DNA of 12,477 nucleotides from the UHGV virus genome UHGV-0072520. The stretch is one strand, 5' to 3'. The notes below the pieces were generated by a model. That model did no database searches. It saw only the letters and a list, made by a program, of their open reading frames with translations, and had not been told where the DNA came from. The position numbers and the translations under genes were made by a program. This DNA is from a virus. How positions within the stretch are numbered: the stretch's first letter is position 1; every line of letters begins with the position of its first letter. This document shows positions 50 through 12,427 of the stretch, piece by piece.

Positions 50-412
50 ATGTTAAAGCTATTTGCAAAGTACACCTCGATTGGTGTGCTGAACACACTT
101 ATACACTGGGTGGTTTTTGGTGTATGTATTTATGCCGCGCATACAAATCAGGCTCTGGCAAACTTCGCAGGTTTCATAGTAGCTGTGAGCTTTAGCTTCT
201 TCGCGAATGCAAGATTCACATTCAAAGCATCGACTACAACGATGCGCTACATGTTATACGTGGGATTCATGGGAACCTTGAGTGTTGTCGTCGGGTGGGC
301 TGCTGATAGATGTGCACTTCCCCCAATGGTCACCCTTATCACTTTCTCCGCCATCAGCCTGGTGTGCGGTTTCGTATATTCAAAGTTCATTGTCTTTAGG
401 GATGCGAAATGA
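50..412 (+). CDS. gtrA: GtrA, bactoprenol-linked glucose translocase (flippase), small polytopic membrane protein
   Basis: 120-aa hydrophobic ORF; N- and C-terminal sequence ([24 protein letters not shown] ... [13 protein letters not shown]) recognised as GtrA of serotype-converting Shigella/E. coli phages. Its stop overlaps the next start (ATGA at 409-412), indicating translational coupling. Confidence 0.88.
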
Positions 413-5061: not shown

Positions 5062-5084
5062 AGCCGGGTCACTCCGGCTTTTTG
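5062..5084 (+). terminator. Intrinsic terminator after the YjzC-like gene
   Basis: Stem agccgg / ccggct (5062-5067 and 5074-5079) with loop gtcact, followed by a T5 run. It overlaps the 3' end of the convergent - strand gene, so it may serve both. Confidence 0.55.
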
Positions 5085-5434
5085 ATATGTCGCTCGCAGA
5101 ACTCAACAAGCCTGCTCATTAAGTAGCAGTAAGTCTCGTTGGCTCTTCCTGGTTCAACATCAACACCTACCCTTGAGCAGATATCGAATGCCATGTGAGC
5201 GCACTCATGGGCAATAGTAGATAGTTTGCCATTGAACACGCCTATCACATGCAAAACACCATTCTCGCTACTCATTGTATGAGACGCTCCGTTGGCGTCC
5301 GAGTCATGCACGTCAACGCCAAGTTTTTGATGCAGGCGTTGCCATTCTGGAAAGTCTCTACAAAACACAATTGTACCGCTCTCAAAGAGCGGAACGAGCA
5401 TCTTTGGTACGTTTCCAATGTTAACTTTTTTCAT
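5069..5434 (-). CDS. Hypothetical protein with HExxH zinc-metallopeptidase-like motif
   Basis: 121-aa ORF containing IAHECAHMAFD (H-E-x-x-H) followed by several Cys/His residues (DICS, YCY, FCERH) that could complete a metal site. AGGA RBS 4 nt upstream of the ATG on the - strand. No family assignment possible without a search. Confidence 0.55.
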   Translation of the reverse strand: MKKVNIGNVPKMLVPLFESGTIVFCRDFPEWQRLHQKLGVDVHDSDANGASHTMSSENGVLHVIGVFNGKLSTIAHECAHMAFDICSRVGVDVEPGRANETYCYLMSRLVEFCERHIKKPE

Positions 5435-5468
5435 GGTATCCTGCGCAAAACTAAGGAGAGTTAATTAT

Positions 5469-5954
5469 ATGAAAAAACCACTGTTAATTATCCCGCTTCT
5501 GCTGGCTGGGTGCGCAAAAGTAAGCGACTATCAGGCAAGTTGCGAGCAACGCTATCCAAAGCTTAGCGATATGGCTAATTGCCTTGATGCCAGCTTGAAG
5601 AACGACTCTCGCATGGCATCAGCACCAACACCTAAGCTGTATGTCCTTGCTGCGAAGATGCTCGGGCAAGGTGTCGATGAAGGCAAGATAAGTGACACAC
5701 AGGCAAGACTTGAACTTCAGAATCTTTATGTTCAATTACAAAGCCAAGAACAAGCACAACAAATAGCACAAAGCCAAGCATTCCAGCAGGCTTTATTGAA
5801 TTATCAGGCTGTAAACACAATGCAAGCGATCGAGCAAAAAGCGCGCCAGCCTGTTATAACTCAACCTTACCCAACACGCGTTGACACATATACAAACTGC
5901 AATTCAGGATTTGGAAACACGGTAACATGCAACAGTAGCAGTAATATCAGGTAG
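5469..5954 (+). CDS. Prophage-encoded lipoprotein, predicted outer-membrane localisation
   Basis: N-terminus MKKPLLIIPLLLAGC has a classic signal peptide plus LAGC lipobox, and Ala at +2 argues against inner-membrane retention. GGAG RBS about 10 nt upstream of the ATG at 5469 (the ORF-track start at 5418 adds an unlikely extension with no RBS). Gln-rich predicted helical middle; 161 aa. Confidence 0.7.
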   Translation: MKKPLLIIPLLLAGCAKVSDYQASCEQRYPKLSDMANCLDASLKNDSRMASAPTPKLYVLAAKMLGQGVDEGKISDTQARLELQNLYVQLQSQEQAQQIAQSQAFQQALLNYQAVNTMQAIEQKARQPVITQPYPTRVDTYTNCNSGFGNTVTCNSSSNIR

Positions 5955-5968
5955 TTACATCTTATCTT

Positions 5969-7816
5969 TTATTGCTGTTCTGCTGTAATTTGGCTTGAAA
6001 GTATAGGGCGTATCGCATTTGCAGCATTATTTAGCGCTCTTTCATAGGCTGGTGTTCCTGCTTTGGTGTTTGCCAAACGTAAGAGAGCATTCCTTGCTGC
6101 TTTTGACTCATACAAGCGCATCATTGCACCGAAACCAGCCTCAAGCCCCATTGATACGCCAAGAGTCGCAGTTGCGCCAATCGTCCTTATCCTGTTGGCT
6201 TGCGATTGCCCCGTCTGAGTTACTACATTTGCGGTGTCTGACCTTGCTGTTTGCTGTAGAACTTCATGAAGAGAATCAAGCTCTTTCATGTGCTTTCCAG
6301 AAAAAATAGTGTTGTAAATTTCACCGCCTGACTGAGATTTCAGCTTATTAACTTCAGTGATGAACTTGGCTGGAGAGTCCCCGGCCTTTTCCGCTATTTT
6401 GCTGACGTAAGCTGCACGCATAGCATCTTTCCCCTTATCATCCAGTGCGCTCCAGATTCGTTTCACGTCAGATGGTTTTCTGCTTAATACAACGGTATTT
6501 ATAAGTTCAGGACTGGCTTCACTGCTTGCCTTGTTGAGCTTGTTGGCAATGTTTTTATTAAGCACCTTATTATAAACGTTTGCATAATCGGAATTTGCTT
6601 TAAGGTATTTTGCTGCGTCTGATGCACCGAGGTTTTTAGCAACTGCGTTACGAAGGTCTTTTGACATTGCATTCTCTACCATATTGGTAGCTGCTTTTGC
6701 CTGGTTGGGGAAGACCATAGCATCTCCCTGAACATTAGATCTAAATGCTGTTCTGTGCTGACGCAAGAGATCAAACGTAACATCCAAATCAGTTGCAGGG
6801 TTTGCTAATTCTTCACGTAGGTTACGCAAGGATGTAAGCAGGCTTTGATTGGCAGACGTCCCAAGCCGTTCCTGTCTTGCGATCGCTGTATTCAGAGCAT
6901 TCATGGTATTTGTTGTATCAACTGCGGCATTACCCATTTTATTGGTGACGTCATTGATAACAGCGCCAGCGGCATCCTTCCGTCCCCTTAACGTGGTGGT
7001 CAGAGATTTCACCACATCATCAGGGTTGTACTCACCAAAACGGTCAAAATAATTACTTACCAGTTTACTACGCGTTGCATATTGCTCCGCTCGCTTTGAT
7101 CCTGTCCCGAGCAAAGCCCCCTCGGCATCCTGAGTAAGGCCGCGAGTGAAAGCATTTTTCGGTGGGATGACATCAGATGTCATTGGCGTCACACCCATTG
7201 ATTCTGAGGTGGCAATTTTTTTCGCTACTTCTGGCGCGATATCGCCTTTTATAGCCGTTATTCCACGCCCTATTCCCTTTGCTGCTGCGGAAAGAACACC
7301 CTGAGCGGCAAGGTTAACTCCGGCATTTTTAGCTGCATTTTGTGCGAAATCGCCTTTCTGATTTGCGGCCTCTGCCAGTGAGCCAATAGCCATGCTTCCT
7401 GCCGTTCCAACTCCTGGAACTAAATACCCGCCAATTGTTTCTCCAGCTTGCGCATAAGGGTCTGTCGGTCGATCGACAGGGCGATAAACATCATCCAAAA
7501 CCTTGGGGCCACCAAGCCCCTGGCTGATTGCATTAATCAGACTTGCGCCACCCTGCAATACGTCAAATGGTATGTTTACCAGACCACGACCAGCCTGTTC
7601 TGCAATTTGCCCTGCACTTTGACCACCAGTGAGCCAATCGCCAGCTTGTTGCATCAATGATGGTTCTTCCCGTGTTGGTGCATTATTGGCCTGATTAACT
7701 GTTTGTTGCTGAACAGCCTGACCAGCAAAATACTCATCAATGGCGGTGCCAATATCTTCGGTGCTCGTACCATCAGGAAAGGTAAATGTCTTACCGTTTG
7801 CAGTTACTTTCATCAT
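5969..7816 (-). CDS. Ejection (DNA-transfer/injection) protein, P22 gp16-like
   Basis: 615-aa Ala/Gly/Gln-rich ORF without obvious enzymatic motifs, upstream of and co-oriented with the tailspike, matching the position and approximate size of P22 gene 16. Start overlaps the upstream stop (ATGA at 7813-7816). Assignment is by synteny and composition, not verified homology. Confidence 0.6.
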
Positions 7817-8805
7817 TCCACCGTAAATTGAATGCCTGATTTTGAGGTATATGATCCGGATTGACTCTGCTGCTGTTGGGTATTTGTCGGTTGTTGGTTA
7901 TTGCTCTGTTGTTGACTATTTGCAGCACTTGAAACCACCAAAGCATCATAAACGCGACCAGACTGACCACGTAATGAGTTATATTGGCCCTGCATTTTTC
8001 GCATTTTTGTTTCAGTAGCAGCCTTGGAATCACCAGGCTGAGGCAGGTACATTTTGGAATACTCCTGCATCTCTGGCAGAGTAATTGCTGCACCTGTTTC
8101 TGGGCGCAAAATTGCATACAAGGCGTCTCTCGCATTTACCATATATTGCTGCTCCGCTGGTGATAGGCTTAAATTTGCAATAGTCCCATCACCAAGAGAG
8201 CGATTTATTAATGCAACTCGCTTAGGGTCAATGCTTTTACTAAGCTGATTCATTGAGTCCATTGAATCTTTTAATCGCAAAGCAAATCCTGCCGCCTTCT
8301 TGGAACCCTCATTAGCCTTATCTATGATGCTTTGCGCTTGTGGCAAACTAATTGGTTTAATGCCATCACCAGATATAGGTTGGTTTAGTTTTCCGGCTTC
8401 CTCGCTGCCATCGGTGTAATACTTAGTTACCGAGCCATCAGGATTGGTTTCAACCTTAAGTAATTTCTTAGCATTGGGATTAATTCCCGCCGCTGCCGCA
8501 AATGCCGCTGCACCATCTGGATCCGCCTTTAACATTTGCGCGTACTGATTGTAATTCTGCATTGCGACTGTTGGTGCATATGCTGACGTTAACGCATTTG
8601 CTCGGCTAATATCCTGCCCTCTCGCCTGAAGTGCCTCGCCAGCCTGATTGCTGCGGATTGTCTCTGCCAGTCTGCCTCGGTCAATCTCACGACCAGCCAT
8701 CTTGTCCTGAACAGCAAACGCCTTTTCTGGTCCAAGCGCACCGAGAGACATAGTAGTCAGCATGTGTGATAGCTGCTCTGGATTCTGGATACCTGTCTGA
8801 ATCAT
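7813..8805 (-). CDS. Ejection protein, P22 gp20-like, apparently missing its 5' end
   Basis: 330-aa ORF from the first ATG, but the frame stays open upstream to 8919 with no start codon, which suggests the N-terminal coding part was deleted. Translationally coupled to the gp16-like gene. Assignment is by synteny. Confidence 0.5.
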
Positions 8806-9202: not shown

Positions 9203-9775
9203 ATGACCACTATTACCAAAGAGCGACTACTGACAATCAAGCAGTGGCGCGAAACATACGGACCTGGTAGCAACGTTGTACTGCCAGCAGAAGAAGCGGA
9301 AGAACTGGCACGAATTGCTCTGGCATCGCTGGAAGCAGAACCTGTAAGCCAAACTTACAACTTGCCACAAACGCACTTTGAACAGGTTGCTGACCTTTAC
9401 GAAATGCAATTTGATGACGGACGCACTTGTGCCTTTCATACTGATGCACAAAAGGCTGCGCAATGGCTTCGGGCATGCGACGGAAACAGGGTTCAGGAAT
9501 ACGTGAAACTGGAGCGACTGCAGAACGCGCTATCGGGCAACTCTCCGGTAATTCCGGATAGTTGGATAAGCTGTAGTGAGCGAATGCCGGAAAAGAATCA
9601 GAACGTGCTTATTTCGGTGAATTTCGATAGCTCTCTGGTTGAACCGCTAATATGCTCCGCACGCTATACCGGAAGCACCTTTCGGCGCGGAGATGCAACG
9701 ATTAAGCCGGGTAATGGTATTGAGCAAGCAACTCACTGGATTCCGCTACCGGAACCGCCGCAGGAGGCGAAATGA
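9203..9775 (+). CDS. DUF551-like phage early protein
   Basis: 190-aa ORF whose C-terminus (WISCSERMPEKNQNVLI ... ATHWIPLPEPP) matches the DUF551 signature common in lambdoid/P22-like early regions, as I recall it. AAGGA RBS 7 nt upstream. Confidence 0.68.
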   Translation: MTTITKERLLTIKQWRETYGPGSNVVLPAEEAEELARIALASLEAEPVSQTYNLPQTHFEQVADLYEMQFDDGRTCAFHTDAQKAAQWLRACDGNRVQEYVKLERLQNALSGNSPVIPDSWISCSERMPEKNQNVLISVNFDSSLVEPLICSARYTGSTFRRGDATIKPGNGIEQATHWIPLPEPPQEAK

Positions 9776-10424: not shown

Positions 10425-10616
10425 TTGAAAATGTTCATGCAAATAGACAGACGCATAGATCTTAATGGCAATTCATACTTAGTTAGATGCGAAGAGAGGC
10501 CTAACGGTGAGTGGCGTGTATATGATATTGACCGTAAGATCAATATCAGCACCATGAACAAAGACACTGCCTTTGATGAATGGAAAGCTGAAGCTAAAAA
10601 ACAACATAATTCGTAG
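10425..10616 (+). CDS. Hypothetical small protein
   Basis: 63-aa ORF. AGAGGA at 10411-10416 is well spaced for the TTG at 10425; ATGs at 10431 and 10437 are alternatives. Followed by a terminator. Confidence 0.42.
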   Translation: MKMFMQIDRRIDLNGNSYLVRCEERPNGEWRVYDIDRKINISTMNKDTAFDEWKAEAKKQHNS

Positions 10617-10658
10617 AATTACAAAAACCCTAACCAATTGATGGATTTCTTTTATCTG

Positions 10659-10683
10659 AACTCGCTACGGCGAGTTTTGTTTT
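10659..10683 (+). terminator. Intrinsic terminator
   Basis: 7-bp stem aactcgc / gcgagtt with loop tacg, followed by ttgtttt. Confidence 0.55.
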
Positions 10684-10695
10684 ATGGAGATGATT

Positions 10696-10995
10696 ATGGC
10701 CTGTTCAACATTCAACCCTCTAACGTTACAGAAATACCAGCCAGCCCCTGAAGATTTATGCTCACTGTGTGGCGGAAATCATGGTAAAGCCGCCATGATT
10801 GAATGTAAGGACAAAATCCACATTTGCCTTAATTGCGTTGATGTCCTCGTTGATATCAAAAATGAGAGAGAAGATAAAAAGCGTAGCGAGGCTGTTCGAG
10901 CCTTAGATTCATGGATGCGAGATGGGTATAGTGCCGCGCAAATTTATGACTTAGCAATATCAAAAGGCGAAATACCAGGAGTGCGCATCGAATAA
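10696..10995 (+). CDS. Cys-rich small protein, possible zinc-ribbon
   Basis: ORF with paired CxxC motifs (CSLCGG ... CLNC) separated by about 18 residues. Start chosen at the ATG at 10696 with GGAG 6 nt upstream; the ORF track begins at 10684. Confidence 0.5.
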   Translation: MACSTFNPLTLQKYQPAPEDLCSLCGGNHGKAAMIECKDKIHICLNCVDVLVDIKNEREDKKRSEAVRALDSWMRDGYSAAQIYDLAISKGEIPGVRIE

Positions 10996-11035
10996 GACGT
11001 AACCAATATTTGTATTGAAGAACTGAAAGAACACC

Positions 11036-11061
11036 AAGCCGCCTGATGGCGGTTTATTTTT
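11036..11061 (+). terminator. Intrinsic terminator
   Basis: Stem ccgcc / ggcgg (11039-11043 and 11048-11052) with loop tgat, extendable by A-T pairs, followed by tttattttt. Confidence 0.55.
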
Positions 11062-11076
11062 GCCTGGAGAATTAAG

Positions 11077-11268
11077 ATGACCGATACCAGCCTGATTCCT
11101 GAGAAAGAAGTGATGAACAAGCTCGGTGTTTCATCACGTCAGACAATCTGGAACTATACCAAACGGCACGGATTTCCGAAGCCAGTCAGAACCCACCCCA
11201 AATCATACCTTCGTGAAGCTGTTGAGGGGTGGATTCTTAACGGTGGCGTTAATCAGAAATGCTCCTGA
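11077..11268 (+). CDS. AlpA-family phage transcriptional regulator / putative excisionase (HTH)
   Basis: 63-aa ORF MTDTSLIPEKEVMNKLGVSSRQTIWNYTKRHGFPKPV..., typical of AlpA/Xis-like small HTH proteins next to P4-type integrases. GGAG RBS at 11065-11068. Confidence 0.75.
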   Translation: MTDTSLIPEKEVMNKLGVSSRQTIWNYTKRHGFPKPVRTHPKSYLREAVEGWILNGGVNQKCS

Positions 11269-12427
11269 TGTGCCAGAACAATTTATCAGCGTGAAGCTCA
11301 TACGCTTTGCGCTGAGCCTCTATCCAGTCGTGTTTATTGTATACGGACATTATCCCGCCAAGTTCATGACCGAGCATTCGCTCAGTAACATGAGGCTCGA
11401 CATTCATCTCGGACAGACGTGTAACAAGCGTTCTTCTGAAATCATGTGTTCGCCAGTAACCTATATCCATCCCTCCCCTTATTCTATTTACGAATCGGTT
11501 GGCTGCAGCGATGCTGATCGGTTTGTTTATGTCTTCTCCAGGGAAAAGAACATCATTGTACGTTGTCATGGCCTTTTCGAGGAAAGGCTTAATTTGTTCG
11601 AAGATTGGACGGCGGATAACATTACCCATCTTGCTATGCTCTTTCGGTACGGTCCATACGTTTTCCAGCAGGTCAAATTCTGTCTTTTTTGCCAGCCTAA
11701 GCTCTGAGAGCCTCGCCCCCCACATCATAAGCATCTGATGAAGTAGCTTATTTGACGTAGACGCACGGCTTCTTTCAATAGCAAGCCAAATCTTAGCCAG
11801 TTCGTGATACGACAGTACCCGATCCCCTACCTCAGCGCGGGAGCCGAAGTCCCTTGGTTGGATGCTCATAATTGCGCAACTATCTATCAACTGACGCCGC
11901 ATGCACCAACTTATTGCTGACCTTAGTTGACTTAGCACCTGCCTTGCTCGGCGTGGATTATCTCTTTCTTCTTCGGTAAGCAGGTCAACCCATTGCTTAA
12001 CCGTGATAGAAGATGCCGGACGATTAGGAAAGGCGTCATGCATGCGCTTCATAACCGTTGATCGGTAAAGTGCCTGGGTCTTTTCTCTGAGAGTTGTAGA
12101 GACGTAGTTGTCGAACCAGTAGTCGAGACACTGGGCGACCGTCATGGAGTTCTCCACCTTCTCTTCAAAATAAGTGCGTGGATCCGTTCCTGAGAAATAG
12201 AGCTTTCGCAAGTCAGCAGTGATCTGTCTGGCATCCTTCAAAGACAGGGATGGGTATCGACCAAGCCCAAGTCGATTAGGCTTGCCATGCCAGCGATAGC
12301 GGTACTGGAACTGGATGACCCCCTTCGGTGAAATTCGTACGCTGAGGCCATCGGCATCAGCCACTTCTTGTGGGCCCGAATATGGTTTACCATAAATAGT
12401 ACGCAGTTTTGTGTCGCTTATAGCCAT
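11249..12427 (-). CDS. int: Tyrosine site-specific integrase, P4-type (DUF4102-like N-terminal arm-binding domain)
   Basis: 392 aa. N-terminus (SDTKLR ... DGLSVRISPKG ... YRYRWHGK ... LGLGRYPSLSLKDAR) fits the P4-family integrase pattern. C-terminal catalytic residues are visible: HDFRRT (H-x-x-R) and the tyrosine in MSVYNKHDW. Confidence 0.92.
   Translation of the reverse strand: MAISDTKLRTIYGKPYSGPQEVADADGLSVRISPKGVIQFQYRYRWHGKPNRLGLGRYPSLSLKDARQITADLRKLYFSGTDPRTYFEEKVENSMTVAQCLDYWFDNYVSTTLREKTQALYRSTVMKRMHDAFPNRPASSITVKQWVDLLTEEERDNPRRARQVLSQLRSAISWCMRRQLIDSCAIMSIQPRDFGSRAEVGDRVLSYHELAKIWLAIERSRASTSNKLLHQMLMMWGARLSELRLAKKTEFDLLENVWTVPKEHSKMGNVIRRPIFEQIKPFLEKAMTTYNDVLFPGEDINKPISIAAANRFVNRIRGGMDIGYWRTHDFRRTLVTRLSEMNVEPHVTERMLGHELGGIMSVYNKHDWIEAQRKAYELHADKLFWHIRSISD

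Follow-up and report, generated by a model that had tools for sequence, protein, structure and literature searches.

The open reading frame (ORF) at positions 10696-10995 of a 12,477-nucleotide stretch of UHGV virus genome UHGV-0072520 (the whole stretch is hereafter called the window) encodes a 99-amino-acid protein. As judged from sequence profiles and structure models, its residues ~20-58 are homologous to the N-terminal zinc-binding domain (ZBD) of the AAA+ unfoldase ClpX but stand free, with a predicted four-cysteine (C4) treble-clef finger. Sequence, cysteine spacing and predicted fold all place this domain in the ClpX-type ZB family (PF06689). The ORF is a real gene, conserved as an accessory gene among lambdoid and P22-like temperate phages of Enterobacterales, and it occupies the lambda orf55 slot of the early-left, pL-driven exo-xis operon, just upstream of the excision and integration genes. 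The protein is proposed, with a probability of roughly 0.4, to mimic the ClpX N-domain and to compete for or pair with the partners of that domain, re-tuning ClpXP proteolysis. The gene and its two modules are as follows:

10696-10995, plus strand: coding sequence (99 amino acids plus stop) of a ClpX-type ZB-domain protein, the same gene as Sf6 gene 19, 933W L0063, VT2-Sakai orf3 and PHROG 3680.
10741-10869, plus strand: P-D-P lead-in and ClpX-N-domain-like C4 treble-clef finger, predicted for residues 16-58 from profile matches, cysteine invariance and a predicted local distance difference test score (pLDDT) of 90-96.
10873-10992, plus strand: predicted C-terminal module, residues 60-99, with the continuation of a long helix, a helix at 80-90 and the tail ...GEIPGVRIE, delimited by comparison with the phage protein P0029 and by AlphaFold2 (AF2) modelling.

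A previous reading of the letters alone (the original prediction) had drawn attention to CSLC and CLNC motifs about 18 residues apart in a protein of about 100 amino acids. This description is accurate: CSLC comprises residues 22-25 (nt 10759-10770) and CLNC residues 44-47 (nt 10825-10836), the spacing is exactly 18 residues, and the cysteine codons of the coding sequence lie at 10759-61, 10768-70, 10825-27 and 10834-36. Conservation among homologues, on which the prediction had been made to depend, was found as well. C22, C25, C44 and C47 are the sole invariant columns when 16 full-length members (26-98% identity) are aligned, and again with 121 homologues (20-98% identity), a C4 metal-site signature.

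The homology search called for in the original prediction returned ClpX N-terminal ZBDs as the sole significant sequence relatives. Compared alone with the PDB, the window protein retrieved 2DS7 and 1OVX (E 0.05-0.17), while a profile built from the 16-sequence family retrieved 1OVX at E 1.7e-7 along with six further ClpX chains. PF06689 was matched individually by 14 of the 16 members, with a best E of 1.5e-7. An hhalign comparison of the family with residues 1-81 of Escherichia coli ClpX gave 96.8% probability, E 2.4e-10 and 35% identity over 40 columns. The four cysteines align with the four zinc ligands of the ClpX ZBD (1OVX, 2DS5-2DS8), and the spacing, CxxC-x18-CxxC, is identical in the two. 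In NCBIfam, ClpX models were the sole matches, over the first ~50 positions and at 16-17 bits against cut-offs of 359-371. The likeness extends to a glycine after the first CxxC, an isoleucine before the third cysteine and a helix motif, (V/I)-D-L-x-x-x-I-x-x-E.

Structure prediction points to the same domain. The AF2 models had a mean pLDDT of 80.9 when built with 16 sequences and 83.9 with 121, exceeding 90 across the finger, and both showed a beta-hairpin (34-37/41-44), a 30-residue helix from 45 to ~75 and a second helix at 80-90. In these models hairpin strand 2 passes into the long helix at the second CxxC (44-47). Foldseek superposed 2DS5_A at 2.2 A over 38 columns with a target-normalised TM score of 0.68, the E-value being not significant for so small a domain. 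ClpX's own N-terminal domain (NTD) is a treble clef (PMC5890618), and the second CxxC of the phage protein begins a long helix after a beta-hairpin; thus, a treble-clef arrangement is predicted here also. The zinc ribbon that the original prediction had favoured was rejected, since the second CxxC is placed on the N-terminus of the helix at 45-75 and not on a hairpin, and no zinc-ribbon family appeared among the Pfam matches.

Positions that matter for ClpX function also keep their hydrophobic character. ClpX F16 aligns with L24 of the window protein (leucine in 111 and phenylalanine in 10 of the 121 homologues) and ClpX I46 with I54 (isoleucine, methionine, leucine or valine in all 121), so that both are hydrophobic throughout the family. 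Hydrophobic residues at the ClpX dimerization positions in the hairpin and the helix are kept as I35, I43 and L50. The phage protein nevertheless differs from ClpX in several respects. It is free-standing, and an identity as full ClpX was rejected because no AAA+ module follows the ZBD-like domain in its 99 residues. Its helix is about three times longer than that of the ClpX ZBD, and it has an F-x4-P-D-P lead-in before the finger and, at the C-terminus, a helical module whose tail is conserved.

The F-x4-P-D-P motif precedes the finger throughout the family and is near-invariant. The window allele carries Ala17 (nt 10744-10746) where 110 of the 121 relatives, including Sf6, VT2-Sakai and the copy on a metagenomic contig (L019), carry aspartate; this D17A change may be a sign that constraint is relaxed where the prophage is defective. 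At the other end of the protein, the last 39 residues match the C-terminus of P0029 with 62% identity (E 2e-17). A similar C-terminus is carried by unrelated 180-187-amino-acid phage proteins of phrog_7798 (P0029, P0030 and P0032). Because it occurs on the ends of unrelated phage proteins, the C-terminal stretch of ~40 residues is a mobile module. Its extreme tail has two subfamily forms, ...IP(G/H)(V/I)(R/H/K)(I/V/L)(D/E) and ...AGYRK(V/I)E, and in comparison with the phrog_7798 proteins the conserved form is ...IPG(V/I)(R/K)(I/L)(E/A/D). This tail loosely resembles the ClpX-ZBD-binding XB tail of SspB.

The ORF as listed spans 10684-10995 on the plus strand, and a start at ATG 10696 gives the 99-residue protein MACSTFNPLTLQKYQPAPEDLCSLCGGNHGKAAMIECKDKIHICLNCVDVLVDIKNEREDKKRSEAVRALDSWMRDGYSAAQIYDLAISKGEIPGVRIE. 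A Shine-Dalgarno sequence, GGAG (10686-10689), lies 6 nt 5' of ATG 10696. Two further in-frame ATGs, at 10684 and 10690, are inside a 52-nt flank (10643-10694) that is found before a different ORF in other phages, and their equivalents in HK140, CUS-3 and mEp234 are out of the annotated frame. In addition, a metagenomic contig without this left flank retains ATG 10696 alone as a start. Thus, ATG 10696 is the likely start.

Paired CxxC motifs taken from a raw translation are not evidence in themselves, because they also turn up where the window is read in non-coding frames. When all six frames were scanned for CxxC-x8-30-CxxC, there were five other, overlapping matches in three other places, all in non-coding frames, as against 0.14 matches per window in shuffled sequence. 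These places are:

158-238, minus strand: chance paired CxxC in a non-coding frame (six-frame scan).
6878-6925, plus strand: chance paired CxxC in a non-coding frame (six-frame scan).
7992-8078, minus strand: chance paired CxxC in a non-coding frame (six-frame scan).

The pair at 10696-10995 is considered real because it lies in a conserved gene, with invariant cysteines in 121 homologues and with 11 synonymous and 2 non-synonymous codon changes relative to a 96%-identical copy.

The family is widespread. The window protein matches PHROG 3680, listed there as of unknown function, from end to end (E 9.8e-69), and its DNA is 96-98% identical to Sf6 gene 19, VT2-Sakai orf3, Min27 ORF03 and phage Kapi1; the GenBank remark on Sf6 gene 19 reads 'similar to phage 933W gene L0063 protein'. 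The 437-nt region is matched by 252 phage records, 49 of which have the gene and the others only its flanks. Among 5426 complete E. coli genomes, 316 (about 6%) carry the gene at 95% identity or more. An exhaustive HMMER search together with a profile search yielded at least 224 clusters of ~100-amino-acid homologues from Escherichia, Salmonella, Enterobacter, Klebsiella, Pantoea, Yokenella, Proteus, Morganella and Providencia. The carriers include the Shiga toxin 2 (Stx2) phages 933W, VT2-Sakai and Min27. Some distant members are already named 'ClpX-type ZB domain-containing protein' or 'ClpX C4-type zinc finger protein' in UniRef/NCBI, whereas the E. coli/Stx-phage subfamily has no ClpX-type name there. 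PADLOC models gave no match to the 99-residue protein or its neighbours, and Rfam gave none in the window. Separately, a search with the family member P0031 found ClpX-like zinc-finger matches in PHROGs 6797, 12435 and 5259 (E 1e-4 to 6e-6), one of them labelled 'protease'. Since these groups also match ClpX-like fingers, phage-borne ZBD-like proteins may form a wider group.

The literature searched, outside which most subscription journals lie, held no description of the 99-amino-acid protein (L0063 in 933W), of any stand-alone phage homologue of the ClpX ZBD or of viral mimicry of an AAA+ protease domain. Other candidates were rejected. A motility paper based on transposon-directed insertion-site sequencing (TraDIS) concerns another phage protein; the phi24B 'Gp05 possible transcription factor' of an exo-xis modelling paper is a different protein, with a winged helix-turn-helix (HTH), a PVQ repeat and a coiled coil; and the deletions reported from Sf6 experimental evolution affect the nin region and not gene 19.

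The following features flank the gene:

10643-10694, plus strand: left boundary sequence (hairpin, T run and GGAG), common to phages with a different ORF in the slot.
10658-10685, plus strand: upstream intrinsic-terminator-like hairpin (stem 10658-10677) with the tail TTTTGTTTT; -14.2 kcal/mol, z -4.2.
10996-11046, plus strand: non-coding remnant in which a lambda orf55-like gene survives by its last 16 codons, DVTNICIEELKEHQAA followed by a stop, directly 3' of the stop codon of the gene.
11036-11065, plus strand: downstream intrinsic-terminator-like hairpin (stem 11036-11055) and T run, within the right boundary; -13.2 kcal/mol, z -2.2.
11077-11268, plus strand: gene that comes next downstream, coding for an AlpA/excisionase-like HTH protein (Pfam Phage_AlpA E 0.0032, below cut-off; phrog_66 excisionase E 1.9e-8).
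11249-12427, minus strand: tyrosine integrase gene, convergent with the alpA-like gene, with a 20-nt 3' overlap.

Both flanks are 93-100% identical to those of phages with different cargo. On the left, a block of 48-52 nt is 98-100% identical in HK140, CUS-3 and mEp234 and stops 1-5 nt short of the start codon. The sequence of the right boundary (10995-11066) was annotated by the Sf6 authors as 'bsq2; boundary sequence'; the downstream hairpin lies inside it and is annotated in HK140 as a rho-independent terminator. Elsewhere the slot holds a 168-nt lambda-orf55-like ORF (HK140 and CUS-3, an intact 55-amino-acid gene) or a 345-nt ORF (mEp234), and what is exchanged corresponds almost exactly to the coding sequence. 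The relic, which takes up the first 52 nt of the right flank, has the frame and sequence of the 3' end of HK140 gp31 and of the CUS-3 ORF; a portion of orf55 has likewise been described near xis in 933W (PMC8614690). Lambda Orf55 and Ea8.5, other occupants of the slot between ea22 and xis, share with the present protein this position and the boundary and terminator sequences on either side. A zinc finger is present in Ea8.5 too (Kwan et al., 2013, as cited in PMC8614690). However, both are unrelated to it in sequence and fold: Orf55 has been modelled as three strands and a helix (PMC8614690), Ea8.5 is a homeodomain/zinc-finger hybrid, and neither appeared among the matches of the PDB sequence and fold searches.

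The original prediction had placed the gene beside alpA, between its own terminators, as an independent transcription unit. Its position next to an AlpA-like HTH gene was recovered (the HK140 counterpart is annotated as AlpA family), and terminator-like hairpins do stand on both sides; independence, on the other hand, did not hold. No promoter-like site was found between the end of the upstream terminator (10685) and ATG 10696, the T run of that terminator leading straight into the Shine-Dalgarno sequence. The sole nearby promoter-like site (10581-10610, 9/12 matches) is 5' of the upstream terminator, and such sites are fewer in the region than in shuffled sequence (3 versus 5.5). As it has no promoter of its own and its flanks are the shared boundary sequences of the orf55 slot, the gene is not regarded as an independent transcription unit. 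For similar reasons an identity as a moron was rejected: the downstream terminator is present, but an own promoter was not found. The exo-xis genes are transcribed early from pL (PMC8614690).

The integration module beside the gene varies, being the HK620-type int in Sf6, the 933W-type xis/int in VT2-Sakai and AlpA with an inverted int in the window and in HK140-like phages. In Proteus and Enterobacter prophages the homologue lies on the same strand between RecT/YqaJ/SSB and xis/int. On L019 (452-892; Logan contig SRR22162901_516) the gene follows a cIII-like ORF by 14 nt and stands upstream of an intact orf55, without the boundary terminator. One distant viral contig, found in the search with P0031, has a homologue among small genes upstream of the terminase. 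An apparent 'CIII fusion' of 146 amino acids (P0002) was rejected as a gene-calling artefact that reads through a TAG. As a side observation, the 3' overlap of the alpA-like (plus) and integrase (minus) genes at 11249-11268 is also present in HK140 and mEp234, and transcription across the alpA-like gene would run antisense to int.

The window itself is probably part of a defective P22-like prophage, because a truncated ejection-protein gene abuts the early-left genes, as after a large internal deletion. That gene is:

7813-8805, minus strand: ejection-protein gene lacking its first ~160 codons (phrog_917 positions 162-509 of 509; Pfam Inj_translocase 151-217 of 218).

A 400-nt gap separates it from the oppositely oriented early-left genes (DUF551 at 9203). 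An analogous remnant with the same ends occurs in E. coli 160-11H1, between dacD and sbcB. Neither pL nor N lies within the window. Given this and D17A, it may be that the window copy is not expressed or works poorly, even if the family as such is functional.

Two other ORFs of the window were noted in passing. One, at 5069-5434 on the minus strand between the tailspike and ejection genes, encodes 121 amino acids with a HECAH (HExxH) motif; it matches PHROG 1365 (function unknown), has no Pfam match and, to judge by that motif, may encode a small metalloprotease-like protein. The other, at 5466-5954 on the plus strand, encodes 162 amino acids with a lipoprotein-type signal (...LLLAGC) and matches PHROG 6067 (function unknown); it is located where P22-like phages carry superinfection-exclusion or immunity genes.

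The proposed role is modelled on what the ClpX ZBD does. The ZBD is a dimerization and docking module that is required for degradation of lambda O, and its hydrophobic surroundings of F16 and I46 are where lambda O, trigger factor, SspB and RssB bind (PMC7804408). Moreover, the isolated ClpX ZBD, supplied in trans, inhibits RssB-mediated sigma-S proteolysis by ClpXP (PMC7226468). Because its four cysteines belong to a copy of this docking domain, the phage protein probably binds proteins and not DNA. Transcription from pL, with N-antiterminated read-through of the flanking terminators, would allow it to be made early after infection or induction. Like the ClpX ZBD, it would bind one zinc and dimerize by way of the hairpin/helix surface. 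It could then serve as a decoy to which ClpX N-domain ligands are lost, such as SspB, RssB and N-domain-dependent substrates of the O-type initiator kind; alternatively, it could pair with the ClpX N-domain itself. In either case, N-domain-dependent degradation by ClpXP would be selectively dampened, and substrates recognized directly by the pore would be spared. The suggestion in the original prediction that the gene product is a small regulator or inhibitor remains plausible.

A more specific and more tentative version, which we hold to be possible at odds clearly short of even, is that lambdoid phages, including the Stx2 phages of O157:H7, encode a ClpX N-domain mimic made early from pL. 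It would titrate SspB, RssB or O-type substrates, or cap the N-domains, with its tail perhaps acting as an XB-like docking peptide, and would thereby reprogramme ClpXP targets in the lysis-lysogeny decision.

Several observations weigh against ClpX mimicry. Taken alone, the window protein matches Pfam zf-C4_ClpX at E 0.014, with 15.7 bits against a gathering cut-off of 27 bits. Any link to ClpX, SspB, RssB or O is one that we infer, and the conservation of L24 and I54 could reflect just the fold core or a dimer interface. CsfB provides the case of a ClpX-ZBD-like dimer with an unrelated partner (PMC5890618). Finally, the window allele has Ala17 and sits in an apparently deleted prophage that has no pL in the window.

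The strongest alternative, which we consider quite possible if somewhat doubtful, is that the product is a small dimeric treble-clef zinc protein that inhibits or re-targets a partner without relation to ClpX (a sigma factor, RNA polymerase or another early protein of the phage, for instance), with the ZBD-like fold as no more than a scaffold. CsfB (Gin) of Bacillus subtilis, an anti-sigma factor directed against sigma-G and sigma-E, is likewise a small free-standing protein with a ClpX-NTD-like treble-clef finger. It is a dimer of ~48-amino-acid subunits, is structurally closest to the ClpX NTD, binds sigma-G and sigma-E and acts purely by protein-protein inhibition (PMC5890618). In functional terms, CsfB is the best precedent for a ZBD-like protein that stands alone, though it is about half as long, is without the C-terminal module and is not phage-borne. 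Furthermore, the neighbouring exo-xis proteins Orf73/TraR, and possibly Orf55, act on RNA polymerase (PMC8614690; PMC9239242), and the P-D-P lead-in and C-terminal module of the family are both absent from ClpX. Set against this, the significant sequence similarity is specific to ClpX ZBDs, with other fingers unmatched and CsfB absent from the PDB matches of both the window-sequence and the family-profile searches (no detectable sequence relationship); in addition, the positions of the ClpX ligand patch are hydrophobic across the family. The zinc-finger-associated domain (ZAD) of Drosophila transcription factors (PDB 1PZW, 6FP5) is also among the closest known systems.

The protein might instead be a phage ClpXP adaptor or anti-adaptor, whose tail (...IPGVRIE or ...GYRKVE) docks on the ClpX N-domain in the manner of the SspB XB tail while the ZBD-like domain holds cargo or blocks a site. 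The tail is conserved in two subfamilies and, together with the preceding 30 residues, is shared by the unrelated 180-187-amino-acid phage proteins; its hydrophobic-basic-hydrophobic pattern resembles the short ZBD-binding consensus of the RssB and SspB peptides, which is LKxh and XB-like (PMC7226468). We nevertheless judge this role unlikely. The motif has 3-4 residues, so that the resemblance may be due to chance, and AF2 renders the tail as coil at lower confidence (pLDDT ~76).

Still less probable is the nucleic-acid-binding zinc-ribbon module of the original prediction, for instance as a regulator of int/xis expression or of a transcript. C4 fingers are frequent among nucleic-acid-binding proteins, the gene adjoins alpA/int, and the C-terminal ...SAAQIYDLAISKGEIPGVRI loosely resembles, by eye, the recognition-helix region of an excisionase-type HTH, although no Pfam HTH match was obtained. 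Nevertheless, the predicted fold is a treble clef and not a ribbon, and the closest relatives, the ClpX ZBDs, bind peptides and dimerize. The isoelectric point is below 7 in 115 of the 121 members (median 5.3; 5.67 for the window protein), and so acidic a family argues against nucleic-acid binding. Adjacency to int is also not kept in detail, as the homologues are found beside three integrase modules, after cIII or near the terminase.

A chance ORF or decaying relic without function, which the chance CxxC pairs of the window, D17A and the frameshifted or truncated family copies P0015, P0018 and P0019 might suggest, is very improbable and effectively refuted for the family by the invariant cysteines in at least 224 clusters across Enterobacterales genera, the 11 synonymous versus 2 non-synonymous changes and the confident AF2 model.

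Mimicry of the ClpX N-domain, the reading preferred here, can be set beside known phage modulators of host AAA+ proteases, namely lambda CIII against FtsH, lambda RexB against ClpXP, and T4 PinA and T7 Gp4.5 against Lon. By analogy, the hypothesized likeness would be that of small early proteins which alter protein stability through a host protease. Unlike the present protein, none of CIII, RexB, PinA and Gp4.5 is known to copy a domain of the protease itself. If the proposal is correct, domain mimicry of a substrate-docking module would be a strategy different from theirs.

The ClpX-type ZB domain was known before; new are its free-standing phage context, the added C-terminal module and a specific functional hypothesis. 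In the exo-xis region, which is poorly understood, one more gene would thereby be given a fold, and it is one which is present in clinically important Stx2 phages and in the complete E. coli genomes counted above, yet is always annotated there as 'hypothetical protein' only. Should the partner prove to be different from those of ClpX, the protein would join CsfB as a second case in which a treble-clef dimer resembling the ClpX NTD stands free and serves as a small protein regulator. How stable the lambda O initiator, sigma-S, LexA fragments, FlhDC and many stress regulators are is controlled by ClpXP. If the protein does act on this system, a phage-made copy of the docking domain would be a simple lever on all N-domain-dependent degradation.

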